Source of the DNA: a virus
Taxonomy: Duplodnaviria > Caudoviricetes
Virus record (IMG/VR): IMGVR_UViG_3300001528_000580
Location: 192,001-256,000 of that record
Reading direction: 5' to 3' (one strand)
Length of the DNA stretch: 64,000 nucleotides
Of this stretch, positions 28,218-55,315 are shown piece by piece. The notes beneath the pieces were generated by a model that had not been told where the DNA came from, did no database searches, and worked only from the letters and a program-made list of their open reading frames with translations. Both the position numbers and the translations under genes were made by a program. Every line of letters begins with the position of its first letter. The first letter of the stretch is position 1.

Positions 28218-29201
28218 ATGTATAATTGCGAATTGTGTGGTTGTGATACAGAAGATGATTTAAAAATAAATAAAGTGTATCAATTAACATTTAACGGAAA
28301 ATCATATCAGCAAGATTTTAAATCAGTTCCTATTTGTCGAGAATGTATTAAAAAGATATCATGTTATACTTGTGGTTGTAAATATTTTCTATTTCTTGAC
28401 GAAGATAATAAACCATATTGTAGAACTCATAGATTAAATTCTTCAGCAACTTGTCCTGCTTGTGGAGAAAAGAAAAAATTTCGTCATGTTTATTTAGGAA
28501 GTTGTTATCCTAAAATTCAAAGTTATTGGTTTAAACCTGTTCCAAAATTTAAAGGAAATGATGATTTATATTTTGGAATTGAATTAGAGGTAGGTGGTGC
28601 AAAGAGCAAATTTAATATTCTAAATTTTATGAAAGATGTTAAAAAAGTAACTGATTTAATATATTTTAAACGTGATGGTAGTATTAATAATTATGGTGTT
28701 GAAGCAGTAAGTCATCCAGCCACATACGAATTTCACAACAATAGTGATATATGGAATAATGTTTTTGTTAGTTTAAATAAAAATGAAATTCCAGAAGATT
28801 CAAGTTGCGGATTGCATGTTCATGTTAGTAAAAGAAATTTATCAAATAAACAAATCGCATGTATTGATGCATTTGTTAATACACAAGATGAATTTATTCG
28901 TGAAATAGCTGGTAGAGAATTAAATAGATATTGTAAAAAAATAATTAAAGAAACAAATGAATGGGGAGTTTCACATAGTAGTTTTTTAAATTCAGGAAGA
29001 TATAATAGCGTTAATTTAACAAATCCAAATACAATAGAATATAGAATGTTTGCAAGTACAAATGATTATAATGTATTTATGAATAGATTGAAATTTGCAA
29101 GAAATTTAACTTTGTTTTGTAAAGATAAGGAATTATCAGAAGTATTAGAAAAAGATCATATTTTAAGAAAGTTTCAAGAATTTTCTTCTCAAGTATGTTA
29201 A
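28218..29201 (+). CDS. amidoligase (COOH-NH2 ligase, Amidoligase_2-like) with N-terminal CxxC array
   Basis: FGIELEV, KRDGSI, EAVSHP, CGLHVHVS, RYNSVN, TIEYRMF. Confidence 0.85.
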   Translation: MYNCELCGCDTEDDLKINKVYQLTFNGKSYQQDFKSVPICRECIKKISCYTCGCKYFLFLDEDNKPYCRTHRLNSSATCPACGEKKKFRHVYLGSCYPKIQSYWFKPVPKFKGNDDLYFGIELEVGGAKSKFNILNFMKDVKKVTDLIYFKRDGSINNYGVEAVSHPATYEFHNNSDIWNNVFVSLNKNEIPEDSSCGLHVHVSKRNLSNKQIACIDAFVNTQDEFIREIAGRELNRYCKKIIKETNEWGVSHSSFLNSGRYNSVNLTNPNTIEYRMFASTNDYNVFMNRLKFARNLTLFCKDKELSEVLEKDHILRKFQEFSSQVC

Positions 29202-29281
29202 TATAATTTTATTTTAAAATAGAAGTAGATTTTTATTTACTTCTATTTTTTTATTTTTTTATATTTTAAAAAGGAGTTAAA

Positions 29282-29695
29282 ATGAAAATATTTTTAGGTG
29301 GAACAGTTGGTAGTATTGATTGGCGCAAACCATTAATGAAATTATTTGATAAATATGGTATTGATTATTTTGATCCAGTATTACCAGAAGGAGAAGATTG
29401 GACAGAAGAATCAAGAATTAATGAAGAAACACAGAAGAAAACTTGTAATATTCATCTATATGTAATTACTCCTGAAATGAAAGGTATATATAGCATAGCC
29501 GAAATTGTTCAATCTTCAAATGATAGATATAATGATACTATTGTTTGTTTTTTAGATAACTATCATGGATTAAATTTTTCAGAACACCAACACAATAATT
29601 TTGTTGCTATATCAACTCTTCTAATAAATAATCCTAACACTTATATATTTTTTAATCTAAAGGATACAATAAATAAAATTTTTGAAAATTTCTAA
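29282..29695 (+). CDS. nucleoside 2-deoxyribosyltransferase-like protein
   Basis: KIFLGGT, DWR, YFDPV, YVITPEMKGIYSIAE. Confidence 0.75.
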   Translation: MKIFLGGTVGSIDWRKPLMKLFDKYGIDYFDPVLPEGEDWTEESRINEETQKKTCNIHLYVITPEMKGIYSIAEIVQSSNDRYNDTIVCFLDNYHGLNFSEHQHNNFVAISTLLINNPNTYIFFNLKDTINKIFENF

Positions 29696-29868
29696 AAAAA
29701 TATTATTTGTTGCTTGACTTTTCAAGAATACGTGTTATAATATAGTAAATTCAAATTCTGAATATTCTTATAAGGAAAAAGTTTTAAAAATTTTTTATAT
29801 AATCATATTTAAAATATTATTGTTAAGATAATATTTAAATTGAACTAAACAAAATAAGGAGTAAACTT

Positions 29869-30132
29869 ATGGCTGATAAATTTCGTTGCGAATATTGTAG
29901 ACAAACATGGGATGAGAGTGAACTAGATGGTTCAATGATCTGTCCAGAGTGTTTGGAACCTTTTGAAGAAGATCCATATGATGAATATGATGAATTTGAT
30001 GACGAGTTCAGTGATGAATATGATGATGAAGAAATTGATGATGATTTTGATGATGTTGAATATGATGATGATTACGAAGGTGATGAAGAAGAAATGAAAG
30101 AATTTGAAGATAGGGATGACGACAATTATTAA
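29869..30132 (+). CDS. Zn-ribbon protein with a very acidic tail
   Basis: CEYC...CPEC then D/E-rich tail; TAAGGAG RBS. Confidence 0.75.
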   Translation: MADKFRCEYCRQTWDESELDGSMICPECLEPFEEDPYDEYDEFDDEFSDEYDDEEIDDDFDDVEYDDDYEGDEEEMKEFEDRDDDNY

Positions 30133-30164
30133 ATAAAATTATATAATAGCAAAGGTGCATTATA

Positions 30165-31121
30165 ATGAATATGAAGCAATTTGATGAGTTGATGAAGGAA
30201 TGTACTGGAAAGAATGTATTTGTAGGATTTTCTGGTGGTGCTGATAGCACTATGGTATTGCTTATTGCAAATCATTTTAAGAAAATTTATAATTTTAATA
30301 TTAAAGCAGTTCATTTTGAACATGGATTGCGAGGCAATGAAGCATTAGGTGATGCAAAGCATTGTGTTGATTTTTGCAACGATATGAACATTGACATTGA
30401 AGTTGTTCATCTTAATTTGAAAAATTCTTCACAAATTGAAGGAATTGCTAGACAAGCTCGTCTAAATTGGTGGAATGATAATTGTGATGAAAACTCTGTT
30501 GTAATGCTTGGTCATCATCTTGATGATCAAATTGAAAACTTTTTGATTAGAATGTCAAGAGGTTCAAATATTACAGGTTTAATCGGTATTCGTTCTATTT
30601 CTAAAATGAATAAGTTTACTATTATTAGACCATTGCTGGAAACAAGTAAAAAAGATATTGAAAAATATCTCACAGATGAAAGTTTTGATTGGGTAATTGA
30701 TAATACAAATAATGATTGTATCTGCCAACGTAACTATATTAGGAATAAGATTTTACCAAAATGGTATAAACAACATGGATTTATCTATGGTGGAATTAAG
30801 CAAAGTTTGAATACTATCAGTGAAGATGCTGATTTTATTGAAACAGAAGTTAAAAATAAATTTGATGAAATCAAAAATATGGATGGAATTTCTATTAACT
30901 TCTGGAAATCGCTTCATAGCGCCATTAGGGTTCGATTGTTGAGAATGTGGGTAAATACTGTCGTTCCTGAATATGTCCCCTCTAAAGCGTTTGTAGGGCA
31001 GTTTAACAACATGTGTGAATCGTTTAACAACACCGACCACAAACATTTGAAAATTAAAGGGAAATACGAGATTTTATTTAAGGCATACAAAACATATATT
31101 TTAAATTGTGAAGGAAATTGA
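30165..31121 (+). CDS. tilS: tRNA(Ile)-lysidine synthetase
   Basis: PP-loop SGGADS, HFEHGLR, ARQAR, GHHLDDQIENFL, RPLL, DNTN, RNYIR. Confidence 0.92.
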   Translation: MNMKQFDELMKECTGKNVFVGFSGGADSTMVLLIANHFKKIYNFNIKAVHFEHGLRGNEALGDAKHCVDFCNDMNIDIEVVHLNLKNSSQIEGIARQARLNWWNDNCDENSVVMLGHHLDDQIENFLIRMSRGSNITGLIGIRSISKMNKFTIIRPLLETSKKDIEKYLTDESFDWVIDNTNNDCICQRNYIRNKILPKWYKQHGFIYGGIKQSLNTISEDADFIETEVKNKFDEIKNMDGISINFWKSLHSAIRVRLLRMWVNTVVPEYVPSKAFVGQFNNMCESFNNTDHKHLKIKGKYEILFKAYKTYILNCEGN

Positions 31122-31122
31122 T

Positions 31123-31341
31123 ATGAGTAGAACATTTAGAAAAGTACCAATCTTTGTTGACCCGCTTTTTGGAAAAAATAATGAGAAAAGAAAAAGAAAA
31201 GTGAAAAATGTTGAAAAGAAAAATCAAAGGCTGGTAGTATTTGATGGAAAAAGTAATGATGAAGTATGGTATTCTAAAGATGATGATACAAGAGAAAAAC
31301 TTTTGGAAAAAGCAGAAAAAATAGATGAAAATAGCAATTAA
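31123..31341 (+). CDS. small basic hypothetical protein
   Basis: MSRTFRK start with AAGGA RBS. Confidence 0.6.
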   Translation: MSRTFRKVPIFVDPLFGKNNEKRKRKVKNVEKKNQRLVVFDGKSNDEVWYSKDDDTREKLLEKAEKIDENSN

Positions 31342-32032
31342 TAAAATATTATTAAGTAATTCTAACAGAAAATTAGATTCAGATATTATTGTATATGATG
31401 ATATATATAATAATGTTTCAAATGAATCTAGTTTTCTGTTTTGTTCTATTAAAGAAGCAAGATATTGGAATAAAAGAGAGAATTTCGATAAAGGATATGT
31501 TATTGCTCCATATTTTGACTTAGGGGTTACATGTTTTCTTCCAGCTATTCAAAATGAATATGTTAATTTCAATGGTGAATTTAAATTAGTTTGTCAACTC
31601 AATTCTGATGATATTGGAAAATTTTGCAGAAGTAATAGTGGTGATAAATTATGGTCAGGTCAAGTACTTGATGAAGGATTGATCTCTATAATTAAAGATA
31701 AATTACAACCAGATGATTTATTATATTTGAGTGATTATAAAAATTTTGATGGTTGTGAATTTCGTTGTTGGGTAATTGATGAAAAAGTGATTGAAATTAC
31801 AACTTATGATAGAATAAATACAAAATCATTAATTTTAGATAAATATGATGAAGTATTAAAATATGTAGAAAATATTAACAAATATTGGACACCAGATTCA
31901 TTATTTACTGTTGATATATGTTTTTTTAATGGAAATCCTAAAATAGTAGAATATAATTGCTTTGCTACCAGTGGATTTTATAATGCTGATGTTAATAAAA
32001 TATGTAATATTGTCAAAGAATATTATAAATAA
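31325..32032 (+). CDS. ATP-grasp (R2K/DUF4343-like) protein
   Basis: FCRSNSGDKLWSGQV, EFRCWV, FTVDIC, KIVEYNCFATSGFY. Confidence 0.75.
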   Translation: MKIAINKILLSNSNRKLDSDIIVYDDIYNNVSNESSFLFCSIKEARYWNKRENFDKGYVIAPYFDLGVTCFLPAIQNEYVNFNGEFKLVCQLNSDDIGKFCRSNSGDKLWSGQVLDEGLISIIKDKLQPDDLLYLSDYKNFDGCEFRCWVIDEKVIEITTYDRINTKSLILDKYDEVLKYVENINKYWTPDSLFTVDICFFNGNPKIVEYNCFATSGFYNADVNKICNIVKEYYK

Positions 32033-33218: not shown

Positions 33219-33995
33219 ATGACAAAACAAGAAAAATTTTTTACTTTTCTTCCTGATCGGTATTATGAACTTTTTAACAAATGGGCTGATTTTATTGGAA
33301 ATAGTGTCAATGATATAGATGGATTTAGTATTATCAAAAATAAAAAATCAGATATTAATGTTTATAAAGAAAGATATCCTGGACATGAAATTGCAAAGGA
33401 TGTTTTTTTGAGCTTTATGATTGCAATAATTGAAAATAAAGATAATTCACATGAAAAATTTGTAGAATTTTCAAACGATAAAAAAGAAATTGGAAAAATT
33501 ATTGAAAAATCTTTAAAAGAATATATAAATGCTGAAAATAGTATTAGAGAAAGCAAAAAAATTAAAATATCTGGTGATATTGTTATTACAGACCATTGTT
33601 ATATTAGCAATAATATTTGTAATATAGGCAAAGGTATTATTACTAATATGAAAAGATTTGATAATCCATGTATAGCTTCATCAACTCTTTATGGTGATTG
33701 GTCATGTGGAGTTTTAAATACAGATACCCAAGAACATATTGGAAATTTTTGTGCTGATGCAGGTCTTGTAATTGTATGCACTCTTAATGATGCAATTAAA
33801 TTCAATAAAGATTTTGAAAAATGGGCAGAAGAACATAATTGGTGTGTTACCATTATTAAGGGATTTGATGGTGAAATTGAAATTGCATATGAACCAGAAG
33901 AATATGAATATAAAGGTGAAAAATGTGTTGAAAAATCTTGCGTAATATATGGAAAGGGTAATATTAATTTCAAGGGGTTTCAAATAGGATTTTAA
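33219..33995 (+). CDS. hypothetical phage protein
   Basis: GDIVITDHCY, TLYGDWSC, GNFCADAGLV. Confidence 0.75.
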   Translation: MTKQEKFFTFLPDRYYELFNKWADFIGNSVNDIDGFSIIKNKKSDINVYKERYPGHEIAKDVFLSFMIAIIENKDNSHEKFVEFSNDKKEIGKIIEKSLKEYINAENSIRESKKIKISGDIVITDHCYISNNICNIGKGIITNMKRFDNPCIASSTLYGDWSCGVLNTDTQEHIGNFCADAGLVIVCTLNDAIKFNKDFEKWAEEHNWCVTIIKGFDGEIEIAYEPEEYEYKGEKCVEKSCVIYGKGNINFKGFQIGF

Positions 33996-34086
33996 TTTTT
34001 TTTAAAAGGGGGATAAAATGAGTAGTTTAAAAATCAAAGATGGTAAAGAATATTATAAATCATAATGTTTTAAGGAATGCTTATTC

Positions 34087-34623
34087 ATGAAAATAATAAA
34101 AAGTATAGTTAATGGTGAAATAAAATATCTTCCTGATAGTGAAAAAACGGCTGTATTAGAAGGCATTTTATATAATTGCACAGAAGTAAAATATATACAA
34201 TATAAATTTTCTATATCAAATGGTAAATTTAATATAGAATATATTAATGTTGAAGATGGAATTATGGGGTGTTATACTGAATGTTCAAAATTTATTCCAC
34301 CATTCCCACGTCATGTAGATATTGTTTCTGTAAAAGATAATAATATTGCTTTTTTGAAATATTATGATAATAAATTTATCTTAAATTTATCAATGATAGA
34401 AAATGGTAGTTTTTTAATAGATGGTTCAGGGATTTATGTTGTTCCTGATAGAATTAGATCTTGTGAAAATAAATATGTTTTAGATAAATCAAAAAAACTT
34501 ATTGAAAAAATGATAAAAAACAAATCTAATAAATTAATCAGAAAAAGAATTTCTAATTTGAAATCTTTAAAAGTAAAAAACAATTGGATTAAATCTTTAT
34601 TATTTTATGATAAAAAAAGTTGA
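34087..34623 (+). CDS. hypothetical protein
   Basis: 178-aa ORF. Confidence 0.65.
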   Translation: MKIIKSIVNGEIKYLPDSEKTAVLEGILYNCTEVKYIQYKFSISNGKFNIEYINVEDGIMGCYTECSKFIPPFPRHVDIVSVKDNNIAFLKYYDNKFILNLSMIENGSFLIDGSGIYVVPDRIRSCENKYVLDKSKKLIEKMIKNKSNKLIRKRISNLKSLKVKNNWIKSLLFYDKKS

Positions 34624-34641
34624 TTTTTTCAAAAAAATAAC

Positions 34642-34669
34642 TTGCACATTTTAAAAATAGTGCTATATT
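34642..34669 (+). promoter_or_regulatory. promoter upstream of the GNAT-cas12a unit
   Basis: TTGCAC-N16-TATATT with extended -10 TG. Confidence 0.65.
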
Positions 34670-34699
34670 ATTCTTGTAAATATATAAAGGTATATATAA

Positions 34700-35212
34700 A
34701 TGAATATTTTAAAAGCAAAAGAGAAGCTAAATAGCATTAAAGTTCAGAATATTACTCCTATTATTTTAAAAGAACTTGATCCAACTAGTCGAACAGAAAT
34801 TAAATATGTGATAGATACTGTTGATTTAATTGATGATGACCTAGAAGATTATACCAAATGTACACCAAAAAATGTTAAAAAAGATTTAATTTTAGGAAGA
34901 CAATTCTTCCTATTTTTAAGAGGGAAAAATGTAATTGGTTCAATTGGTATGAAAGTTTACGAAAATGGAGTTGTTGATTTATATAACTTTGGTGTCTTTC
35001 CAAAATATCAGGGGAATGGATATGGTAGAAAGAGTCTATCAACTATCATTAGATATATTTTAGAAAAATATCCAAATACGTCTGAAATTCATATCTGCGT
35101 ATATAAGACAAGTCGTATAGCACTTCATTTGTATAAAACAATGGGATTCAAAATTGAAGAAATATGGGATAAAATGTATTTTATGGTTAAAAAGATTAAG
35201 GAATCAGAATAA
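34700..35212 (+). CDS. GNAT-family acetyltransferase
   Basis: Motif A GVFPKYQGNGYG; motif B ALHLYKTMGF. Confidence 0.88.
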   Translation: MNILKAKEKLNSIKVQNITPIILKELDPTSRTEIKYVIDTVDLIDDDLEDYTKCTPKNVKKDLILGRQFFLFLRGKNVIGSIGMKVYENGVVDLYNFGVFPKYQGNGYGRKSLSTIIRYILEKYPNTSEIHICVYKTSRIALHLYKTMGFKIEEIWDKMYFMVKKIKESE

Positions 35213-35291
35213 AACAATTATTTAATAGAATTATATACTTTAAATTAATGTAGAATAGTAAAAATTTATAATAATATAAAGGGAATATTAA

Positions 35292-38200
35292 ATGAATAAT
35301 GTATTTGAACAATTTACAAACCAGTACTCTACATCAAAAACAATTTGTTTTAAATTGATACCAAGTGAAATTACAATGAAAAACATTGAAAAAAATGGAT
35401 TCATTAATAGAGATTTTGAAAGATATAACAACTACAAGGTAGTCAAGAAACTTTTTGATGATTATCATAGATTTTTTATTGAATCTTCATTAAAAGATAT
35501 AAGTTTGGATGTAAGTGAATTGTATAGACTTTCTGTAGAGTTTCGCAATAATAAGGAAATTAAAAAAGAACTTGATGCAGAAATAAAAAAAGTTAAAGTT
35601 AATATTGAAAATGTGTTTAAAAATAATGAAATCTTTGAAGAACTTTTCAATAATTCATTTATAGAAATTGTAGATGATTATACAAATAACCAATTTACAG
35701 ATATTCTATATTCTTTTAATGGAATGACAGGTTATTTTGGAAAATATAATGAAAATAGAAGAAATGTATATAATAAAAGTATACCAAGCAGAATTGTTGA
35801 AGAAAATTTTCAGATATTTGTAAATAATATATTAAAATTTGAAAAAGTTATTTCAAAGTATCCTGAATTAAAAGATAAAATAATTTCAGTTATTACAGAT
35901 AATAACTGTGTAGCTAATATATTTAATTATGAACAATATTGTAATTTTATTATTCAAAATGGAATAGATAATTATAATAATAGTATTGGAATAATCAATC
36001 AATTTGTCAATGAATCTTATCAAAAGAATGAAATAGATAGTAAGTTGAAATTTGCTAAACTTAACAAACAGATTCTTAGTGATACAATTAGTTCTTTTGT
36101 AATAGAAAATTTTGATAATATTGATGACACAGTACGTTCTATTAAATCGTTTATTAGTGATATTAAAAAAGATAATTTTTTTGATTTAATTAATCAATTG
36201 TCAAATAATTTTGATTACTTTGACAGTGATAAAGTGTACATTTATAAAAATAATATAAATAAAATTTCAAATATATTATTTGGTGATTATAATTATATTA
36301 AAACTTTATTGGTTGATTATGCTGATGAGCATTTTAACACTAAAAGTCAAAAGAATAATTTTATTGATTCTGATTATTTTACTGTTTCTATTCTTGATGA
36401 GATAATAAAAGTAAAAAATATCAAAGATATTTTAAATTTTGATTTTAATGTTATTGATAAAAATATTGAACAGTTTTTGAGTATAAATGATTATACTAAG
36501 GATAAATCTATTCAGATAATCAAAAATATGTTTGATAGTATTCAATATTGTAAAAAAATATTTGATTTGTTACAATGTCAAGAAGAACAATTGGATAAGG
36601 ATGTAATTTTTTATAATGAATATAAAAATATATATGATATATTTAAATCATTTTCAAAATTGTATAACCAAGTAAGAAACTTTTTTACAAAAAAGAATAG
36701 AAACAAAAACAAGGTAGTACTTAAATTTGATAATCCAATTTTTGGCAAGGGGTTAGCTTTTAGTAAAGAAAAAGATTATAAAACATTTTTCTTTAAACAT
36801 GGAAATAATTTCTATATTGGAATAATGAATAAGGATAATATGCCAAAATTTGTTGAATCGAATGATGGAGATGTAGTACAAAAATATATATTTCAATCAT
36901 TTAGCAATCCAACTAAACAAGTACCTAGATGTTGTTTTACTCAAGGTATCAAAAAACATTTTGAAAGCGGAACTGATGATATTATTGTAAATAAAGAAGT
37001 ATTTACAAATAGTTTACGCTTTACAAAAAAGATATTTGATATTTATGAAAGTAAAAGTTTTAAAAATAATATTGAAGATAAAAACGATTATATTGATTTT
37101 ATCAAACATTTCTTTAATTCATATAAAAATATTAAGAATTATTATGATTTGAGTAAGTTTAAGTCATCTGAGGAATATCCAACATTAGAAAGTTTCTATG
37201 AAGATGCAGAAAAATATTTTTATTTAATTGATAGTATAAATGTATCATATGAAGATATTAAACAAATGGAATTGAATAATCAGTTATTTACATTTCAAAT
37301 ATATTCTAAAGATTTTTCTAAATATAGAAAAGAAAATAGTAATAAAAACATACATACTTTATTGTTTGAGGCAATATTTTCAGAAGAAAATAAGAAACAA
37401 ATGTTTCCATTTCGTTTAAATGGTAATTTTGAAATATTTTTCAGAAAGAAAAGTATTGATAATCCCACTATACATAAAAAGGGGGAGAAACTTTTAAATA
37501 AAACAGATTTAAATGGTAATAGAATACCAAACAATATTTATATGGAACTTTTTCAGTTTATTAATGGTAGACTTGAAAAAGATATCAGTAATGAAGCATT
37601 GGCATATATGGATAAAATTAAAATAAATGAAGCTCATTTTGATATTGTAAAGGATAATAGATATACAACAGATCAGTTTGAAATACATTTGCCAATGATA
37701 TTAAATGCATTGAGTGGAAATAAAGTTAAAATAAAAGATTTTAACGAAGAAATTAATGCATATGTAAAGAAAAATAATTGTAATATTATTGGTATAGATA
37801 GAGGTGAAAGAAACTTACTTACCTATACTGTAATTGATGGTTCTACTGGTAAGGAAATAGAACATGGAACATTAGATGAAGTCAATGGAGTGAATTATAA
37901 TAATTTATTAACATTACGTTCAATTGAAAGAAATAAAGCAAGGAAAAATTGGAATGAAATTGAACAAATTAAAGAATTAAAATCAGGATATTTGTCATGG
38001 TGTATTCATAAAATCTGTAATTTAATCGTTAAATATAATGCAGTAATTTGTCTTGAAAGACTTAATTCAAAAATGAAAAAAAGCAGAGCAAAAATAGAGA
38101 AACAAATTTATAATGCTTTTGAAAAAAGTTTAATCAACAAGTTAAGTTATATGATTAATGACAAAAAAGAATCTATATTTAATGGTAAACAGTTAGTTTG

Positions 38201-38852
38201 TATCACCGATCAAATGAATGATTGTATTCAAAATGGTATTATATATTTTGTTGATCCTTCATATACATCAAAAGTAGATCCAGAAACAGGATTTGCAAAT
38301 GTATTTAGAATCAGTGAAATAACTAATAATAAGAAAAAGATTGAATTTTTCAGTAATTTTAATAGTATTATTTTTGATGGTAATGATTTTGTATTTTCTT
38401 TTGATTATAAAAAGTTTAATACATGGAAAAAATATAAAGATGGTAAATTTACAGTAAGTTCTATTGGTGATAGGATAAAAAGATTCAAAAATACAAACGG
38501 TTATTTTGATTATAAAACAATATATCCAACTATTGAATTGAAAAATATTTTTTCTGGAATAGATTATAATATAAATGAAAATTTAAAATCAATAATATTA
38601 TCTGATGAACAACTTTGTTCTAAAGTATTTGATATATTCAAATATATTGTAACATTAAGAAATACTAATTCAGAGTGTGATTATATTATATCGCCAGTTA
38701 AAAATAATAATGGAGAGTATTTTGATACAAGAAAAATAAAGAATTCAAATGCTGATACTATTGCGTCATTTAATATTGCAACAAAAGGATTCTTATATAT
38801 AAATTACTCGAAATTAAAAGTTGAAGATTATTTTAATCATTTAAAAAAGTAA
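35292..38852 (+). CDS. cas12a: type V-A CRISPR effector Cas12a, 1186 aa
   Basis: FTNQYSTSKT..F.LIP start, ENRRNVY, KLNKQILSD, YNQVRNF, FQIYSKDFS, RuvC-I IGIDRGERNL (D836), RuvC-II LE (E922), YTSKVDPETGF, RuvC-III NAD (D1155). Confidence 0.97.
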   Translation: MNNVFEQFTNQYSTSKTICFKLIPSEITMKNIEKNGFINRDFERYNNYKVVKKLFDDYHRFFIESSLKDISLDVSELYRLSVEFRNNKEIKKELDAEIKKVKVNIENVFKNNEIFEELFNNSFIEIVDDYTNNQFTDILYSFNGMTGYFGKYNENRRNVYNKSIPSRIVEENFQIFVNNILKFEKVISKYPELKDKIISVITDNNCVANIFNYEQYCNFIIQNGIDNYNNSIGIINQFVNESYQKNEIDSKLKFAKLNKQILSDTISSFVIENFDNIDDTVRSIKSFISDIKKDNFFDLINQLSNNFDYFDSDKVYIYKNNINKISNILFGDYNYIKTLLVDYADEHFNTKSQKNNFIDSDYFTVSILDEIIKVKNIKDILNFDFNVIDKNIEQFLSINDYTKDKSIQIIKNMFDSIQYCKKIFDLLQCQEEQLDKDVIFYNEYKNIYDIFKSFSKLYNQVRNFFTKKNRNKNKVVLKFDNPIFGKGLAFSKEKDYKTFFFKHGNNFYIGIMNKDNMPKFVESNDGDVVQKYIFQSFSNPTKQVPRCCFTQGIKKHFESGTDDIIVNKEVFTNSLRFTKKIFDIYESKSFKNNIEDKNDYIDFIKHFFNSYKNIKNYYDLSKFKSSEEYPTLESFYEDAEKYFYLIDSINVSYEDIKQMELNNQLFTFQIYSKDFSKYRKENSNKNIHTLLFEAIFSEENKKQMFPFRLNGNFEIFFRKKSIDNPTIHKKGEKLLNKTDLNGNRIPNNIYMELFQFINGRLEKDISNEALAYMDKIKINEAHFDIVKDNRYTTDQFEIHLPMILNALSGNKVKIKDFNEEINAYVKKNNCNIIGIDRGERNLLTYTVIDGSTGKEIEHGTLDEVNGVNYNNLLTLRSIERNKARKNWNEIEQIKELKSGYLSWCIHKICNLIVKYNAVICLERLNSKMKKSRAKIEKQIYNAFEKSLINKLSYMINDKKESIFNGKQLVCITDQMNDCIQNGIIYFVDPSYTSKVDPETGFANVFRISEITNNKKKIEFFSNFNSIIFDGNDFVFSFDYKKFNTWKKYKDGKFTVSSIGDRIKRFKNTNGYFDYKTIYPTIELKNIFSGIDYNINENLKSIILSDEQLCSKVFDIFKYIVTLRNTNSECDYIISPVKNNNGEYFDTRKIKNSNADTIASFNIATKGFLYINYSKLKVEDYFNHLKK

Positions 38853-38991
38853 TTTGTTAAATGATTGTGTTGTTTGAAAATTTATTGCAAACCTAAGTGT
38901 TATTAAAAATGAATTGAGCTTAATTTGCAAAAATAAAGAAAAATATTTCTGAAAAAAATATTGTAAATAAGCTCAATTTATTAAATATACT
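38853..38991 (+). promoter_or_regulatory. CRISPR leader with boxA-like element and long inverted repeat
   Basis: TGTTGTTTGAAAA at 38868-38880; AATTGAGCTTA...TAAGCTCAATT arms at 38912-38978. Confidence 0.65.
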
Positions 38992-39844
38992 GTTTAAACA
39001 TATATACTAATTTCTAATTTGTTAGATTAGAATACACTAATGCAGCATAAAATAAGTTTAAACATATATACTAATTTCTAATTTGTTAGATTATTCTAGC
39101 TCCTGTTCCTATACATTGTTTAAACATATATACTAATTTCTAATTTGTTAGATATTGATGGTTCTGTTTCCGGCATTATTGTTTAAACATATATACTAAT
39201 TTCTAATTTGTTAGATCAGTTCTTATTCTATTTTCGTTTTTAGTTTAAACATATATACTAATTTCTAATTTGTTAGATAAGCAGCTTTTGAAGAACCACG
39301 TCATGTTTAAACATATATACTAATTTCTAATTTGTTAGATGAGCTCTCTGGATGTCCATCCTGACCAAGTTTAAACATATATACTAATTTCTAATTTGTT
39401 AGATTGTTCCGTTTCTGCGGTCTGTGTCATGTTTAAACATATATACTAATTTCTAATTTGTTAGATCACGACGTTACAGGCTCTATTTATTCTTGTTTAA
39501 ACATATATACTAATTTCTAATTTGTTAGATCTACATGAATATAAGTGTTCATTCTTGTTTAAACATATATACTAATTTCTAATTTGTTAGATATCCATCA
39601 TTCCCAATATGGACGAAATGTTTAAACATGTACATTAATTTCTAATTTGTTAGTTTCAATCTCATATAGGGCAAACGGCTTGTTTAAACATATATATTAA
39701 TTTCTAATTTATTAGATACTCATAGTATTTTAGTTCTAATGGGCTTGTTTAAACATATATTATAATTTCTAATTTGTTAGATAGTACTTTGCTTTTGAGG
39801 TTGAGCGGGTTTAAACATATATGATAATTTCTAATTTTTTTTAA
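38992..39844 (+). CRISPR. type V-A array: 14 repeats (36 nt, GTTTAAACATATATACTAATTTCTAATTTGTTAGAT) and 13 spacers of 26-29 nt
   Basis: Repeats start at 38992, 39056, 39118, 39181, 39243, 39305, 39369, 39431, 39495, 39557 (identical) and 39620, 39682, 39747, 39809 (degenerate, trailer end). Confidence 0.98.
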
Positions 39845-39927: not shown

Positions 39928-40704
39928 ATGTGTATTGCCATTTATAAACCAAAGAATGCAGAACTTCCATCAAAGGAAACATTGAAAATTTGTTTTTCAA
40001 ATAATCCACATGGTGCAGGATTTGCCACAGATATTTTAGGATCATATCATGGAATTACTGTATTCAAAGGATATTTTTCTTTTGAAGATTTTTATGAAAA
40101 GTTTATCAACAATGTAACAAAAGAACATGTATGTTTAATTCATTTCCGGTATGCTACTCATGGGCTGAAAAACGAAAAAAATTGTCATCCTTTCTTATAT
40201 TACAAATATGATGAAAAAGACAAATATCATGAACATACTCCTTCTTTTTCAGCACTTGTTCATAATGGCGTTATTAATAATGGTTTAAAAAACCAAAAAC
40301 ATTCAGATACTTTTTGGCTTACAAAACAGATTGAAAATGGAAGTAAGATTGATAATGAAGTATTTAAAGAAACAAACAATAAAGTAGCAATTATCAATTC
40401 TGATAAAAGTGTTGAACTTTATGGAAATTGGATTGAAGATGGTGGCATCTTGTATTCAAATGGAACATATCGTTTTGATTGTGCAGTAGAATCAGATAAA
40501 CAAAATAAGAAGTTGACGTTTTGTGATTGTTGTGGAAAACTTGGAGAAGATTTTTTTGAAACAGATGTTGGTTATCATTTCTGTTCATATTGTCTGGCAA
40601 ATGAAATAACCATCAAACCTTGTCATCATTGTGGTATGTCAACAACCAATGAATGCTGTAACACTTGTAACAACATGGGATTTGCAACAAATTATTTTAT
40701 TTAA
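39928..40704 (+). CDS. class II glutamine amidotransferase-like protein (paralog 1) with C-terminal CxxC array
   Basis: N-terminal MC nucleophile, NNPHGAGF, HFRYATHG, CHPF, HNG, SDT. Confidence 0.85.
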   Translation: MCIAIYKPKNAELPSKETLKICFSNNPHGAGFATDILGSYHGITVFKGYFSFEDFYEKFINNVTKEHVCLIHFRYATHGLKNEKNCHPFLYYKYDEKDKYHEHTPSFSALVHNGVINNGLKNQKHSDTFWLTKQIENGSKIDNEVFKETNNKVAIINSDKSVELYGNWIEDGGILYSNGTYRFDCAVESDKQNKKLTFCDCCGKLGEDFFETDVGYHFCSYCLANEITIKPCHHCGMSTTNECCNTCNNMGFATNYFI

Positions 40705-40706
40705 TT

Positions 40707-41150
40707 ATGGAACAAAATATCAATAACATTTGTGATAATTTGAAGAAACAATGGAGAGATAATCTTCGTTTCTTCTCTAACACAGTACAATCTTTACAAA
40801 AAGATATTGATGAAAAAGATAAAGAGATACAAAATAAAAATTTTGTAATACAAGAACAAAAAAGAATAATTGATAGTTTAATTTCTCAAAAAGATGGATA
40901 TGTTATCAAACATCGAAATGGTGTTTGGTGTTTTCATCCTGTATCTGAATTTAAAATTAGAAGAAATAAGTTAAATTTAGAAATTTCAGAAGTTATCAAA
41001 GAATGTAATCTAAATATTTCAGAAGAAACTTTTGAAAATTGCGAAAATGGATTAATCTTATTCAAAGATATATATGTTAAAGTAAAATTTGATAGTCAAA
41101 TAGCTATAATATTGCATAATTTTTATAAAAATATGGAAAAAATAGAATAA
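40707..41150 (+). CDS. coiled-coil protein with XRE-like HTH
   Basis: FKIRRNKLNLEISEV...ISEETFENCENG. Confidence 0.5.
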   Translation: MEQNINNICDNLKKQWRDNLRFFSNTVQSLQKDIDEKDKEIQNKNFVIQEQKRIIDSLISQKDGYVIKHRNGVWCFHPVSEFKIRRNKLNLEISEVIKECNLNISEETFENCENGLILFKDIYVKVKFDSQIAIILHNFYKNMEKIE

Positions 41151-41231
41151 TTTCCTTGACTTTTAAATATTGTGGTGTATAGTATCATTATAATAGAAAA
41201 CAATAATATTAAAAGGAAAAGGAAAAACATT

Positions 41232-41879
41232 ATGTGCATTGCTATTATTAAAAAGTCTGGAATTGAGCTTCCTAGTGAAGAAACCCTGTATTACTGCTTC
41301 TTTAACAATCCTCATGGGGCTGGATTTACCGTAAATCGGAATGGCTTTAACTATATCAAAAAGGGATTCATGACTTTTGAAGATTTCATGGATGCTCTTG
41401 AGAAAGAAAATATTAAAGAAGATGAATCTGCTCTTATTCATTTTCGTGTGGCAAGCGTTGGAAGTATTAATAAAGGAAATTGCCATCCTTTTCCTGCCAC
41501 TCAAAATTTTTCTCAAATGAGAAATGTCAGAATGAAAACAGATAAAGATGTTGTTGTTCATAACGGAACATTTTTCAACTTTATGGGAGAACATAATGCT
41601 GGATATTCTGATACAATGCAGTTTGTTAATATGATTGCTCCACTTCTTACAGCTAAAGAAGATATGACAAAGAAACAGGTTAAAGCATTTAATGAACTTG
41701 TAGAAAATGTCGTAGATAATAATTGCTCTCGTGTTGCAATTATGAATAAATATGGAAAAATCAATTATTTTGGTGATTGGATTAATGACAAGGAAACAGG
41801 AATCTTGTACAGTAATAAAAGCTATGAAAAAATTACTTCAAGATTTTCTATTGAACAGCTTGAATTTAACTTCCAATAA
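41232..41879 (+). CDS. class II glutamine amidotransferase-like protein (paralog 2), no Cys-rich tail
   Basis: ATG 41232 gives MCIAII; NNPHGAGF, HFRVASVG, HPF, HNG, SDT. Confidence 0.85.
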   Translation: MCIAIIKKSGIELPSEETLYYCFFNNPHGAGFTVNRNGFNYIKKGFMTFEDFMDALEKENIKEDESALIHFRVASVGSINKGNCHPFPATQNFSQMRNVRMKTDKDVVVHNGTFFNFMGEHNAGYSDTMQFVNMIAPLLTAKEDMTKKQVKAFNELVENVVDNNCSRVAIMNKYGKINYFGDWINDKETGILYSNKSYEKITSRFSIEQLEFNFQ

Positions 41880-41936
41880 CTTGCATTTGTGAAAAAGTGT
41901 GCTATATTATACAAATGTAACAGTTAAGGAACTATT

Positions 41937-42899
41937 ATGTGTGTTGCCATTGTAAAACCAGTAAATATTAAAATTCCATCTAAGGAAATATTGTATAATT
42001 GTTTTAAAAACAATCCTCATGGAGCTGGTTATTCATATTCAAATGGTGATTTTGTTATTATTAATAAGGGATTTGAAACGTTTGATAGTTTCTATAAATC
42101 TCTATTAGAATCAGAAGCGAATGAAGATAAATTAGTATTTATTCATTTTAGAATTGCCAATAGAGGATTGAAAGATAGAGGAAATACACATCCATTCCCA
42201 ATTAGCAACAATTTAACTAAACTTAGAATCATTCACAGCAACCATTGCAAATATGCTCTCATTCATAATGGTTTGTTTAACTTTAATGATAAAGAATATT
42301 TGAAGTATGAACCATTGAATGTTATTTCAGATACTATGTTATTTAGCATGAAATTACATGAACGGTTAGAAAAATTATCAGAAAATATTGAAAATATTAG
42401 TTCTGATTATAGCTTGCCAAGTGTAGTAGCATATAATCTGTTAACAAATACAACAGAATATACTCCATATATAAACAATATGATTAAAGATACGTGTAGG
42501 TTTGCAATTATGGGAGTTGAAAATAAGTTTCAACTTTTTGGAAAGTGGATTGAGGAAGATGGAATTTATTATTCCAATAATAGTTTTAAACAAACAAAAT
42601 CAAAAACACGTTATGTATATATGCCTTGTAATTATTGCCAAACATTCATTGAAAAAGATGAAATGATTAAAACAAAAGTAGGTTTTTGTTGTAAACAATG
42701 TTATCATAAAATATATATACCTAAATATGGTGATGAAACTATTGCAGACAAATTCATTTTTAAGAAAATTTGTAAAGTATGTAATACTATAATAGATAGT
42801 AACAAAATGATTTGTAATGAATGTAAAAATGTATTAGAATGTTATTTAAATAAAAAAAACAAAAAGGAAATAAAAAACAATGTGTATCGCAGTAATTAA
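41937..42899 (+). CDS. class II glutamine amidotransferase-like protein (paralog 3) with CxxC array
   Basis: MCVAIVKP, NNPHGAGY, HFRIANRG, THPFP, HNG, SDT. Confidence 0.85.
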   Translation: MCVAIVKPVNIKIPSKEILYNCFKNNPHGAGYSYSNGDFVIINKGFETFDSFYKSLLESEANEDKLVFIHFRIANRGLKDRGNTHPFPISNNLTKLRIIHSNHCKYALIHNGLFNFNDKEYLKYEPLNVISDTMLFSMKLHERLEKLSENIENISSDYSLPSVVAYNLLTNTTEYTPYINNMIKDTCRFAIMGVENKFQLFGKWIEEDGIYYSNNSFKQTKSKTRYVYMPCNYCQTFIEKDEMIKTKVGFCCKQCYHKIYIPKYGDETIADKFIFKKICKVCNTIIDSNKMICNECKNVLECYLNKKNKKEIKNNVYRSN

Positions 42900-43944
42900 A
42901 CCAAAAAATGTTGAAATGCCTTCACAAAAAACTTTGAAGAATTGCTTTGATAGTAATCCGCATGGTGCAGGTTTTATGTATTCAGATGGTAGCCGATTGG
43001 TTATTCAAAAAGGATATATGAATTTTGCTGATTTTTATAAAGCACTTAATGATGCAGATCTTAAAAAAGAACAGCTTGTTTTTCTTCATTTTCGTATTGC
43101 AACTCACGGTCTTAGGGATGGTGGAAATACTCATCCATTTCCTGTAACTACTGATGTTAACGAAATGCGTTCAGTCAAAAATAAGTTTGATGGATATGGA
43201 TTAATTCATAATGGTATTATGCATTTTGATCCTAAAACATTTAAAGCCTATGACCCAACAGGTGTTATTTCTGATACGATGTTGTTTTCAATGATACTTT
43301 CAGAATGCATTGACAATATGAATAAAGCACCAGATAAAATGGCAGCATTATTTGAAGATTTTGATGAACCTGCAAATGTTGTTGCTTATAGTATGATAAC
43401 TGGTGACAATACATATGATTCTCATATTGAAAATTATTTGGGTTGGAATAAAATTGCCGTCATGGATGCAGATGAAAATTTTGTATATTATGGTGATTGG
43501 ATTCACAATAAAGGAATGTTGTATTCAAATACTGATTATGAAGATTATGTTCCTTATAATTATGGATATTCTCATGGTGGTTATTATTCATGTGGTGGAT
43601 ATTCTGACGCAGAAACTACTTGCCTTTCTACATATAAAGACTGTTGTTCTTGTGGTACATATGATAGAAAAGCAAATATGATTTCTACGATTTATGGATA
43701 TTGTTGTGAAAAATGCAAGAAAGATTTTGGATTAATTGAGTGTAAGGAATGTAAAGACTTTGCAACACCAGATGATATTATTGATGGAATTTGCAGGGAA
43801 TGCAAGGCAAATGATTATAGATGTGAAGAATGTAATGAAAAGGCTTCTTATCTTCGTTCAAAAGAAGGAAAACTCTATTGTCAAAGTTGTTATGAAAAAC
43901 TCTTTTCAGTTAATGACACAAGCCTTGCACTTGTGAATAAATAA
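42880..43944 (+). CDS. class II glutamine amidotransferase-like protein (paralog 4) with CxxC array
   Basis: MCIAVIKP, SNPHGAGF, HFRIATHG, THPFP, HNG, SDT. Confidence 0.85.
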   Translation: MCIAVIKPKNVEMPSQKTLKNCFDSNPHGAGFMYSDGSRLVIQKGYMNFADFYKALNDADLKKEQLVFLHFRIATHGLRDGGNTHPFPVTTDVNEMRSVKNKFDGYGLIHNGIMHFDPKTFKAYDPTGVISDTMLFSMILSECIDNMNKAPDKMAALFEDFDEPANVVAYSMITGDNTYDSHIENYLGWNKIAVMDADENFVYYGDWIHNKGMLYSNTDYEDYVPYNYGYSHGGYYSCGGYSDAETTCLSTYKDCCSCGTYDRKANMISTIYGYCCEKCKKDFGLIECKECKDFATPDDIIDGICRECKANDYRCEECNEKASYLRSKEGKLYCQSCYEKLFSVNDTSLALVNK

Positions 43945-43962
43945 CAAGAGGAGTATTTATTA

Positions 43963-45111
43963 ATGTGCATAGCTGTAATCAAGCCTAAAGGCGTTCAAAT
44001 GCCTGACAGGGAAACATTGTCAAATTGTTTTACAAGCAATCCACATGGCGCAGGATTTGCTTATAATCGAAATGGCATTACTTATATTGTAAAAGGATTG
44101 ATGTCATTTGTTGATTTTTATGAAGAATTAAAAAAGCATAATCTTTCTAACGAAGAAAATGTTTTTCTTCATTTTCGTATTGCAACTCATGGATTAAGGG
44201 ATGGGGGAAATACTCATCCTTTTCCTATTGTAAAAAATTTCTCGGATATGAGAAAAACAAGGCAGGAGTATAGAGGATTTTGTTTAATTCATAATGGTGT
44301 TTTTAATTATGGTTCTGAAACAATGAAATCATATGATGCTAATGATATTATTTCAGATACTATGTTATTTGCAAAAATGGTTGCAGATGAATTAGAAACG
44401 ATTCCCAATGAATATAACACTGAATTTTCTGATACAAGCAAAGAGAGAGCTTTAGCTTTTGAATTGAAAAATATTCAAAATAGAAATAATAAAATTCTTA
44501 ATGCAAGTATTGAAAAAGGAATTTCATATAGTAAAATTGCTATAATGGATGAAAATGGTGATTATATAAAATTTGGTGATTGGATTGAAGATAATGGAGT
44601 ATTTTATTCCAATCATGGATATAGTGGCTATGGTAGATATGGTCGTTCATATTCTTATAATTCTTCTTATAACACAAGGGGGGCTAGGTGCAATTCATTA
44701 ATATCATCATATAGTTCTTGGAATGATGATGGTTATGGTTTGTTGCCTAGCGAGAGGTTTCAATCAAGATATTCTAAAAAGAAGAAAAGAAAACGTAAAG
44801 AATTTTGTGAATACTGTCAAAAATATAAAAGACATTATAGTATATTTGATAATGGAGAAGTAATTTGTTCTGACTGTGAAGAACAATATCTTAAATCAAC
44901 TTGTCAAGGTTGTGGGAAAATATTTGATGATGATGACATGGCTACCAAAAACTTTTGTTATGATTGTTTTTATGGTAGTGAAGAATCAGAAGATCCAAAT
45001 GAAAATTGTATTTGTATTTCATGTGGTCAAAACTATTTAAAAAAGGATGAATCAAAAGAAAAAGAAATTTGTCAAAAATGTTACAATCAATATCATGATA
45101 TGAGAGTATAA
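43963..45111 (+). CDS. class II glutamine amidotransferase-like protein (paralog 5) with CxxC array
   Basis: MCIAVIKP, SNPHGAGF, HFRIATHG, THPFP, HNG, SDT. Confidence 0.85.
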   Translation: MCIAVIKPKGVQMPDRETLSNCFTSNPHGAGFAYNRNGITYIVKGLMSFVDFYEELKKHNLSNEENVFLHFRIATHGLRDGGNTHPFPIVKNFSDMRKTRQEYRGFCLIHNGVFNYGSETMKSYDANDIISDTMLFAKMVADELETIPNEYNTEFSDTSKERALAFELKNIQNRNNKILNASIEKGISYSKIAIMDENGDYIKFGDWIEDNGVFYSNHGYSGYGRYGRSYSYNSSYNTRGARCNSLISSYSSWNDDGYGLLPSERFQSRYSKKKKRKRKEFCEYCQKYKRHYSIFDNGEVICSDCEEQYLKSTCQGCGKIFDDDDMATKNFCYDCFYGSEESEDPNENCICISCGQNYLKKDESKEKEICQKCYNQYHDMRV

Positions 45112-52617: not shown

Positions 52618-55194
52618 ATGCTATCTAGAGAAATATTTAGAGTCGCAAGAGAGATAGTTGCTGCTAAATGGAGTAATTCATTAAAAACATTCTATGAAGA
52701 TCAAATAATTAAAAATGAATTTAACTTGAATGTTTATGAAGATCTTAATGAATCACAAGTAGTTGAATTACAACAAAAACTTCAACCTTTTATGAATCAG
52801 GTTGAAGAAAGAGTTCAGGAAATTGCAAAAAACTTTACTAATAAAAAAGATGATGTTCCTGTTTACAAATGGATTGTTTCTGTTCTTCGTGATAATAACA
52901 TTGACATTTTAAGTGATGAATCATATTTTGAAATTGAAACAAGTTGCAAAAACTTTAAAGAATATAAAAAATTCTTAGATAATAATAAACAAGATTTCCA
53001 TAAGTATAAAACATTCTCTGCATTGAATGATGTTGTATTACCATACATTAAATTACAAAAAGCTAATGAAAAATCTATTGAAGGATTTGAAAAAGTTGGT
53101 AAAGCAGGTGAATATGTTATTTTAAAATTAACAGATTATGCTAAATCAGTTAAACTTTTTGATAAGCCAGGTATTACATGGTGCGTAAAATCTAAATCAT
53201 TTTGGGATAATTATGGAGCACCTTATTATTTAGTTATGGTTAAATACCAACCTTATTATTTAATTAACTTTAATAGTAGCCAATTTTCTGATCCAAGTCA
53301 AGGTAAAAAAGAACCAATTGATGAAACATTGGGGAAACTTATTTATGATTTAATTAAAAAAGAAAATGGTGGAAGATGTATATTTACAAGTGGATATGGT
53401 CAAAGTAGAAATTGGGATGTTATGTATCCTTATTATCCAATAAGTGAAATATTTAAAACAAATGATGTTAATATTATTAAAGATTGTGTTAAACAATCAT
53501 TCGTATCAAATGATAATAAACGTTATAATGAATTAGTCGCAGAGTTAAAAGAAAGAGGAATGAAATTTGATGGTGATGATTTAGTTGATGTAATAACTGA
53601 TGAAAAACAATTTGTTAAAGCAACAGATAGTGAAATTTCAAATGGCATTACATTAAATAAAAAGAATGTTATTAAATTGTTGTTTAATTCTTTCAAAAGA
53701 GGTAATAGCGGAAAATCATTATTTAAAAAGATGTTATCTTATGTTCCTAGCGAAACTAATCCAGAACTTTATGTTGAAAGTAAGGATAATCCAACAGCTA
53801 ATATTGATGCAAAAGATGAAAGAGGTAATGGGTTATTACATTATTGCTCAACTAAATCACAAATAGTATTATTGATAAATTATGGAATCAATATAACAGA
53901 AGAAGATTTCAATTTGATTTTTAAGAATGCAATTAAAGATTCAAATCTTGATACTATTAAATTTTTAACATCAGAAGGCAAAGTTAAAATATCTGAACAA
54001 GTTATTATTGAAGCTATGCAATCAAGACATCGTGCTATAATTAAAATGTTCTTAGACGCAGGACTTGATTTTAATACTGTAATGTATTCTAATGTAACAC
54101 CATTGATTTATGCTATTTATAATAGAATGAATTCTGTTTTAGAAGATTTTATTAGTAGTAGAAAAATAAATTTAGAACAAGAAGTAAATGGATATAATGC
54201 TTTAGAAGCATGTTTAGACCAAAATAATGATGAAGCATTAGATGCATTAATTAATGCTGGTGCATTTTTAAATAAAGTATTTGAATCAGGAAAATTAGCA
54301 GGTAAAACACTTGTAAAAATATGTGTCGAAAAAGATAATAGAACATTATTAGAATCTTGTGTAAGAAAAGGTGCAGATGTCAATTCTACATATCCTTTAC
54401 ATTTTTGTATAGAAAATCATAAATATGATTTTGCAAAAATTTTAATAAATGATAAAGATACTAATTTTATGTTACAAGATGAAAATGGTAATACTGCCAT
54501 GATGCTTGCTATCATAGAAAAGAATAGAGATTTAGTATTACTTATTTTCTCTAAAACACAAAAAGGTTTAGGTTTATCAAATAGAGATGGATTTACACCA
54601 TTGATGTTAATGATTGAATACGATTTTTCTGCTGATGATATTATTAAGATGTTTAAAAATCCTAATAAGAATATTGGTGGAGAAAAAATTGATTTCAAAT
54701 CAGCACTTGATATTGCATATGATAAAGTTCAAACTCCAAATATCAAGAAAATTATTGATTTCTTAAATGTTGCAAATAATAAGAGACCTAAAAATAAACA
54801 ATTTGATTCAACAAATCAGATGTATAATTTTGTAATATCTGGTAATTTAGTTGGATTAAAAGGTTTATTAGAAGGAGATTTAAAACATACTATTGATTTC
54901 TTAGTTAATAAGAATGGTGCTAATGTATTACATGTAGCTGTTCAGGCTAAATATGTTGATATATTAGAATATTTAGTAGATTATATTGGAAGACTTGATC
55001 GTAATATTCTTAAAAAGTTGAAAGAACAAAAATTCAGAGGAATGACACCAGAAGAAATGGTAGACAAAGCTCTTTCAAGATTAAGATCAAGTGATAGTAA
55101 TGGACGTAAAGATTATCAGGAAATGAAAGAAATTTTAGGTTCAAGAACTATTATGAGTAGAATTATGAATGTATTAAGTAAATACATAAAGTAA
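52618..55194 (+). CDS. large ankyrin-repeat protein with a non-repeat N-terminal domain
   Basis: DERGNGLLHY, TPLIYAI, DENGNTAMMLA, NRDGFTPLML, GANVLHVAV; N-domain TWCV motif. Confidence 0.85.
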   Translation: MLSREIFRVAREIVAAKWSNSLKTFYEDQIIKNEFNLNVYEDLNESQVVELQQKLQPFMNQVEERVQEIAKNFTNKKDDVPVYKWIVSVLRDNNIDILSDESYFEIETSCKNFKEYKKFLDNNKQDFHKYKTFSALNDVVLPYIKLQKANEKSIEGFEKVGKAGEYVILKLTDYAKSVKLFDKPGITWCVKSKSFWDNYGAPYYLVMVKYQPYYLINFNSSQFSDPSQGKKEPIDETLGKLIYDLIKKENGGRCIFTSGYGQSRNWDVMYPYYPISEIFKTNDVNIIKDCVKQSFVSNDNKRYNELVAELKERGMKFDGDDLVDVITDEKQFVKATDSEISNGITLNKKNVIKLLFNSFKRGNSGKSLFKKMLSYVPSETNPELYVESKDNPTANIDAKDERGNGLLHYCSTKSQIVLLINYGINITEEDFNLIFKNAIKDSNLDTIKFLTSEGKVKISEQVIIEAMQSRHRAIIKMFLDAGLDFNTVMYSNVTPLIYAIYNRMNSVLEDFISSRKINLEQEVNGYNALEACLDQNNDEALDALINAGAFLNKVFESGKLAGKTLVKICVEKDNRTLLESCVRKGADVNSTYPLHFCIENHKYDFAKILINDKDTNFMLQDENGNTAMMLAIIEKNRDLVLLIFSKTQKGLGLSNRDGFTPLMLMIEYDFSADDIIKMFKNPNKNIGGEKIDFKSALDIAYDKVQTPNIKKIIDFLNVANNKRPKNKQFDSTNQMYNFVISGNLVGLKGLLEGDLKHTIDFLVNKNGANVLHVAVQAKYVDILEYLVDYIGRLDRNILKKLKEQKFRGMTPEEMVDKALSRLRSSDSNGRKDYQEMKEILGSRTIMSRIMNVLSKYIK

Positions 55195-55315
55195 TTTTAA
55201 TAATATCTTTTTTAAACAGGAACTTTTTATAAAAAGTTCCTGTTTTTTTATTTGACTTTTTATATAATTGGTGTATATTAAATTATTAAATAATAAGTTC
55301 TAAGGAGAACATACT

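Follow-up and report, generated by a model that had tools for sequence, protein, structure and literature searches.

A 441-kb phage has a minimal type V-A CRISPR locus that matches integrated elements of its host group and probably carries an acetyltransferase gene as a passenger

The CRISPR-Cas system carried by phage ICP1 acts against PLE satellites. Huge phages also carry minimal CRISPR-Cas systems, in which an intact effector and array stand without Cas1, Cas2, or Cas4 and would draw on the acquisition machinery of the host (Al-Shayeb et al. 2020, PMC7162821). On the opposing side, AcrVA5, from a Moraxella bovoculi element (PDB 6IUF), and AcrVA5Bsp, from a rumen Bacteroidota phage, are anti-CRISPR (Acr) proteins with a Gcn5-related N-acetyltransferase (GNAT) fold that work by acetylation (PMC7556299, PMC10799925). 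Here, we analyzed a window of 64,000 nucleotides (G000:192001-256000, G000 being the full virus record IMGVR_UViG_3300001528_000580; locus coordinates are given in window numbering), which carries a GNAT gene, cas12a, and a CRISPR array in a row. We consider it probable that this is a minimal type V-A locus hitting integrated elements, that the GNAT is a passenger, and that an arginine at position 546 of Cas12a is tolerated without a partner gene. The locus resembles the huge-phage systems in its intact effector and array, in the absence of the three acquisition genes, and in the likely use of host acquisition machinery; in contrast to them, it has a compact Cas12a from a phage-only clade, its array stem is not of the host type, and its identified targets are integrated elements of the host chromosome. 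As in ICP1, a phage-borne CRISPR targets host-chromosome islands that bear an integrase, although the system here is of type V-A, lacks acquisition genes, and faces islands that are only possible satellites of the phage. It adds a compact natural Cas12a of 1186 aa with a defined host group, a TTTV protospacer-adjacent motif (PAM), and real targets, and a huge gut phage that directs CRISPR against elements integrated in its host.

The record G000 is a single contig of 440,868 bp with direct terminal repeats, 25% GC, and 33 tRNA genes, and represents the complete circular genome of a 441-kb phage. Its Cas12a matched cas_Cpf1 over the full length (TIGR04330, 710 bits against a cut-off of 300), with the Pfam domains REC1, REC2, RuvC, and Nuc all matched and the RuvC D-E-D triad present (D836, E922, and D1155). 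Between strains, the ratio of nonsynonymous to synonymous polymorphism (pN/pS) of cas12a ranged from 0.03 to 0.21, mostly 0.03 to 0.15; the gene is intact and under purifying selection. No cas1, cas4, or cas2 gene was found in the complete genome, which thus lacks the cas4-cas1-cas2 set of a complete type V-A system, and the locus is a minimal type V-A CRISPR system whose effector is a member of Cas12a. The spacer sets were wholly different between the window array and that of strain L017. Acquisition must therefore use host proteins, since the phage has none of these three genes and yet spacers differ between strains. The protein falls in a phage-only clade and is about 30% identical to Cas12a of the host group; its closest comparison is a sister phage (cluster P0002) with the same genes flanking the locus and a 67% identical Cas12a. 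IMG/VR scans with the Cas12a clade, the sister, P0134, and the GNAT returned no close locus. More distant Cas12a proteins were seen in two virus records, L026 (a complete IMG/VR phage of 251 kb) and L025, neither of which matches the GNAT here. In one strain of the sister (L015:3956-4243), a single repeat follows cas12a, which may be a collapsed array or an assembly effect. The features of the locus, with the gene order given in the preliminary description (promoter, GNAT, 79-nt gap without a terminator, cas12a, array) upheld by open reading frames (ORFs) and motif scans, are as follows.

34642..34669, plus strand: sigma70-type promoter-like motif with an extended -10, at a position common to the sister phage
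34700..35212, plus strand: GNAT acetyltransferase ORF, 170 aa, full classical fold over residues 19-169, isoelectric point (pI) 9.2
34700..34744, plus strand: first 15 codons of the GNAT, common to an unrelated 96-aa gene of the sister, 32/45 nt identical
35213..35291, plus strand: GNAT-cas12a gap, 79 nt, AT-rich, holding the cas12a ribosome-binding site
35292..38852, plus strand: cas12a ORF, 1186 aa, RuvC triad intact
36747..36749, plus strand: Lys486 codon, aligned with AsCas12a S542 (the RR-variant position); Asn in the sister
36927..36929, plus strand: Arg546 codon (AGA), aligned with AsCas12a K607; Lys (AAA) in the sister
38853..38991, plus strand: array leader, with a boxA-like motif at 38868-38880
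38992..39844, plus strand: CRISPR array, 14 repeats of 36 nt and 13 spacers of 26-29 nt

To identify the targets, spacers were searched against genomes of the host order and family, reached via a related genome, and matches with 0 to 1 mismatch were counted. Ten distinct spacers matched, four of this species and six of the sister, while shuffled spacers gave no matches at up to 3 mismatches. The protospacers of this species, whose Cas12a bears Arg, are preceded by TTTC (three) or TTTG (one), and those of the sister, which bears Lys, by TTTC (four), TTTG (one), or TTTT (one); TTTV makes up 1.5% of the target DNA. With TTTV at 4/4 and 5/6 sites, respectively, no PAM shift is therefore seen. Three of the matched spacers lie in the window array, as listed below.

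39341..39368, plus strand: spacer 6, matching a helicase-like gene on integrase islands of three genomes at 27/28 positions, PAM TTTC
39405..39430, plus strand: spacer 7, matching at 26/26 positions across the start codon of a large serine recombinase, PAM TTTC
39593..39619, plus strand: spacer 10, 27/27 match in genome G021, at a low-GC contig end, PAM TTTG

The targets are islands of 38-48% GC within DNA of about 60% GC, and carry a PF00589 tyrosine integrase, a PF07508/PF00239 recombinase, a helicase-like gene, an amidoligase, and a GATase. The spacer 7 target lies on a human-gut contig, where the neighboring gene's cluster is named Victivallis vadensis; on this sequence link, from which the name is taken, the host of the phage is assigned to the Victivallis group. 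Low-GC integrase islands at L106:472-9069, L108:277-4943, L111:7090-14260, and L115:12596-19745 are hit by both phage species and are possible satellites. The phage genome, like the islands, also carries amidoligase and GATase genes. The phage array holds no self-targeting spacers, the arrays gave only chance hits against GenBank phages and plasmids, and none of 146 host-array spacers matched the phage convincingly (best, 4 mismatches). A 20-mer spacer hit in Rectinema was set aside as a chance match with mismatching flanks.

Taken with these matches, a mechanism can be proposed. From what is known of its family, Cas12a would process its own array, to which host Cas4-Cas1-Cas2 would add spacers. 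The guides, as their matches indicate, would direct it to integrase and recombinase islands of host-group chromosomes at TTTV PAMs. There, it would most likely cut integrated elements that compete with or parasitize the phage during infection, and host DNA would be cut along with them.

The GNAT and cas12a are probably co-transcribed, judging by their adjacency and the gap at 35213-35291, in which no terminator-like site was found. The extended -10 motif at 34642-34669 is one of 43 of its kind genome-wide; generic promoter matches (78) showed no excess over the 79.5 expected by chance in AT-rich DNA. In the sister, an unrelated gene of 96 aa occupies the GNAT position in 9/9 loci, and shares with the GNAT the promoter position, the ribosome-binding site, and the first 15 codons. 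As the same promoter and first codons lead into unrelated genes, the GNAT position, behind the cas12a promoter, looks like a slot in which genes are swapped, and the GNAT may have entered it by recombination within those 15 codons. The 96-aa gene was considered as a mini-GNAT and ruled out; it lacks motif A and an NCBIfam hit, and has a weak hit to an unnamed PHROG. No motif family was found in the genome that would make the shared N-terminus a capsid-targeting tag. Clusters P0003 and P0005, the latter bearing Arg, have other, non-GNAT genes upstream of cas12a. The preliminary description had named homologous loci without the GNAT as evidence that would speak against its proposal; GNAT-cas12a synteny was found only within this species, and the adjacency is absent in all three related Cas12a clusters that could be read (P0002, P0003, and P0005).

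The closest homolog of the GNAT among 1.84 billion representatives, P0144, is 49% identical; genes of its contig map to G000 99-112 kb with 41-88% identity, and the contig comes from the same run as a sister cas12a locus. This is the GNAT homolog of the sister (L018:7840-8318), and its open frame aligns with GNAT residues 19-167 at 42% identity; that it sits far from cas12a shows the GNAT gene to be mobile. In 3/3 contigs its ATG, within an A-run, is off frame by one base, which may reflect a pseudogene, slippage, or a short form of 105 aa.

The GNAT itself matches PF00583 above the cut-off (E value 2.7e-11), and the acetyl-CoA motif A is present. Its model has a predicted local distance difference test score (pLDDT) of 88, with the residues of the first 15 codons forming a low-confidence appendage (pLDDT 53-61). 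The top fold matches comprise PaiA-like Ta0374, HP0935, SpeG, RimI, and Ard1 with Z scores of 15-17 (maximum 17.4); the best has a root mean square deviation of 2.6 over 149 residues, and residues 19-169 align with full-size GNATs. RimI also ranked first in NCBIfam, below the cut-off. The pI is 8.8-9.2, and that of the relatives is 9.3-9.7, all basic. On this model, the protein is a full-size, basic GNAT with a RimI/SpeG-like fold in which no AcrVA5-like feature was seen, and may serve as an accessory N-acetyltransferase whose likely substrate is, as for RimI or SpeG, the N-terminus or a lysine of a host protein, or a small amine. Between strains, its pN/pS was 0.3-0.4, like that of hypothetical neighbors; motif A is changed in two strain variants, and the usual Asn of motif B is Ser. 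A second GNAT of 137 aa lies at G000 54825-55238 (L023), and its pI of 4.9 would better fit a basic protein target.

Next, we examined residue 546. HMMER alignments placed Arg546 on K607 of AsCas12a, as the preliminary description had proposed, and on the corresponding Arg in chain 5xh7, which carries the engineered K607R change. The lysine of the Lb/Mb-type MLPKVF motif shares the Arg546 column in ReChb and homologs, the alignment being of these proteins and not of the Lb and Mb chains. Arg546 is fixed in 4/4 cluster proteins and in 3/3 strain loci checked. Across Cas12a, however, the site is seen as K, R, H, N, and T, and the column holds K in 88, R in 14, H in 7, and N in 4 of the 120 best homologs, with other residues in the rest, so that the lysine earlier called conserved is not strictly so. 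On a FastTree tree that leaves out the PAM-interacting (PI) loop, 12 changes are required to account for 13 Arg tips. The four-member phage clade reads R (this phage), K (P0002), K (P0003), and R (P0005), and Cas12a of the host's class retains Lys in 4/10. Among host-class proteins, those of L096, L099, L101, and L105 diverge in the PI loop and carry Thr or Asn in place of the PAM lysine. Arg at the PAM-lysine site is a recurrent variant of a variable position. At a PAM contact of this kind, Arg546 would be a recurrent, tolerated substitution that requires no partner gene.

The preliminary description had read the locus differently: the GNAT would inhibit Cas12a of the host or of rivals in the manner of AcrVA5, by acetylating its PAM lysine, while Arg546 protects the phage's own effector. 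We regard this as unlikely, although some of its elements stand. AcrVA5 and AcrVA5Bsp share with the GNAT here the fold, motif A, and an origin on mobile elements, and their target site is the residue aligned with Arg546; proteins clustering with AcrVA5 are encoded by huge phages (PMC7162821). A Lys-bearing Cas12a also occurs in the host group, where one of 19 genomes examined from the target genus contains a V-A array, and the Cas12a of that genome carries Lys585. Several observations weigh in favor of this proposal and against a passenger GNAT. In all strains seen of this species, the GNAT adjoins cas12a and is probably transcribed with it; as an anti-CRISPR would predict, the sister pairs Lys with a frameshifted, distant GNAT homolog and this phage pairs Arg with an intact one. 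The K635R substitution reportedly escapes AcrVA5.

On the other hand, the contrast between an intact GNAT with Arg and a frameshifted one with Lys is a single pair, in which the GNAT and cas12a contigs of the sister are not physically joined, L018 being placed in the sister by synteny and a shared run, not by one contig. The adjacency is not conserved, Arg occurs without an adjacent GNAT in P0005, and Arg has arisen through the 12 changes described above. In the host family, Cas12a is present in only 8/144 genomes and, of those that could be read, half lack the lysine. The protein also differs in type: AcrVA5 has 92 aa (PMC13131331), whereas this one has 170 aa and includes the N-terminal helices seen in classical GNATs. 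Its net basic charge would bode poorly for binding to a PAM pocket that is itself basic. It has no hit to an Acr family, and AcrVA5 (6IUF) was not among the matches listed in the sequence and fold searches, which does not in itself exclude kinship. It adjoins the phage's own cas12a rather than lying in an acr/aca locus, and no aca-type helix-turn-helix gene or further regulator-size ORF was found in 33900-35400, a weak criterion given that AcrVA5Bsp likewise lacks aca (PMC10799925). A co-fold of the GNAT and the PI region of the G296 Cas12a, which bears Lys, scored 0.00 and counts for neither side. Thus, a Lys-bearing Cas12a in the host group and the sister contrast speak for the pairing of an anti-CRISPR with an immune effector, and the adjacency, the recurrence of Arg, and the GNAT type speak against it, leaving the inhibitor role a candidate one. 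Were the GNAT to prove an inhibitor, this would be the first case of an anti-CRISPR encoded alongside an effector that resists it, giving a selective off-switch pair.

A related proposal starts from the CRISPR RNA (crRNA). The 19-nt handle of the array repeat folds into a 5-bp stem in which a C-G pair has become A-U by compensatory change (window 39009-39027), and the sister array (L008:13725-14691) has the same A-U stem-closing pair. The variant stem is much weaker (-1.5 kcal/mol against -4.7 for the canonical stem), and the canonical C-G stem is found in host-group arrays and in the P0005 clade. Moreover, five solitary canonical 19-nt handles with the host-type stem lie at G000 73163, 73323, 86801, 88658, and 88707; the guides after them gave no convincing target in the loci examined. 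In being solitary canonical Cas12a handles, they are like the type V-A Racr/Cracr RNA anti-CRISPRs (PMC10651486; 10.1101/2024.10.29.618823), but they lie 140-158 kb from the locus, in a phage with its own variant-handle Cas12a, and had no target found. By this analogy, they are candidate RNA anti-CRISPRs or regulatory guides. The variant stem makes it possible that phage and host Cas12a are orthogonal, and, if the phage Cas12a prefers it, the RNA route could inhibit host Cas12a and exempt the phage's own. The solitary handles suggest that the phage acts on host Cas12a and raise the prior that it opposes it, without implicating the GNAT; the host-type repeats are a better lead for anti-Cas12a activity than the GNAT, and a variant stem beside them offers a direct route to the orthogonality question. 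A double disarming of host V-A, by an acetylating GNAT together with decoy handles, with the phage's Cas12a exempt through Arg546 and its stem, strikes us as improbable; if true, it would yield an orthogonal, self-protected CRISPR effector and a new family of acetylating anti-CRISPRs.

It is quite unlikely that Arg546 was selected as an escape, either from a foreign AcrVA5-type enzyme or from promiscuous acetylation by the phage's own GNAT, with the latter not a dedicated inhibitor. The range of residues at the site is what an arms race would produce, and AcrVA5 is a wide-spectrum acetyltransferase (10.1101/2021.11.16.468554). In addition, the N-terminus (window 35331-35342) reads TSKT instead of the AcrVA2-recognized LSKT motif (PMC13131331), which the sister retains. 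Nevertheless, this position varies among homologs, its first residue being Leu in just 49/122, and Arg546 is one of 15 departures from the consensus in this Cas12a, while the sister has 17; a search of the target islands, which was not exhaustive, turned up no acetyltransferase.

Least probable of all, and in our judgment very doubtful, is that selection for a widened or shifted PAM (TYCV) produced, in Lys486 and Arg546, a natural variant of the RR type: the two residues stand at the sites engineered as S542R/K607R in the AsCas12a RR variant (PDB 5xh7; PMC7144938), with a basic residue at 542 and Arg at 607, the K/R pair is rare (2/120 homologs), and TTTV spacers are no exclusion since RR variants keep TTTV activity (PMC7144938), but the protein here is natural, has Lys and not Arg at 542, and shows TTTV protospacers only, with no TYCV in either the Arg clade or the Lys sister, a result that tests use rather than capacity, as acquisition is set by the host.

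Other features surround the minimal type V-A locus. The boxA-like motif of the array leader recurs at window 12059-12071 and in the leaders of related loci. Directly 3' of the array, window 39928-45111 holds five tandem GATase-like paralogs, which are kept in the sister. Upstream of the locus, window 28218-32032 holds amidoligase, nucleoside deoxyribosyltransferase-like, TilS-like PP-loop, and R2K ATP-grasp genes.

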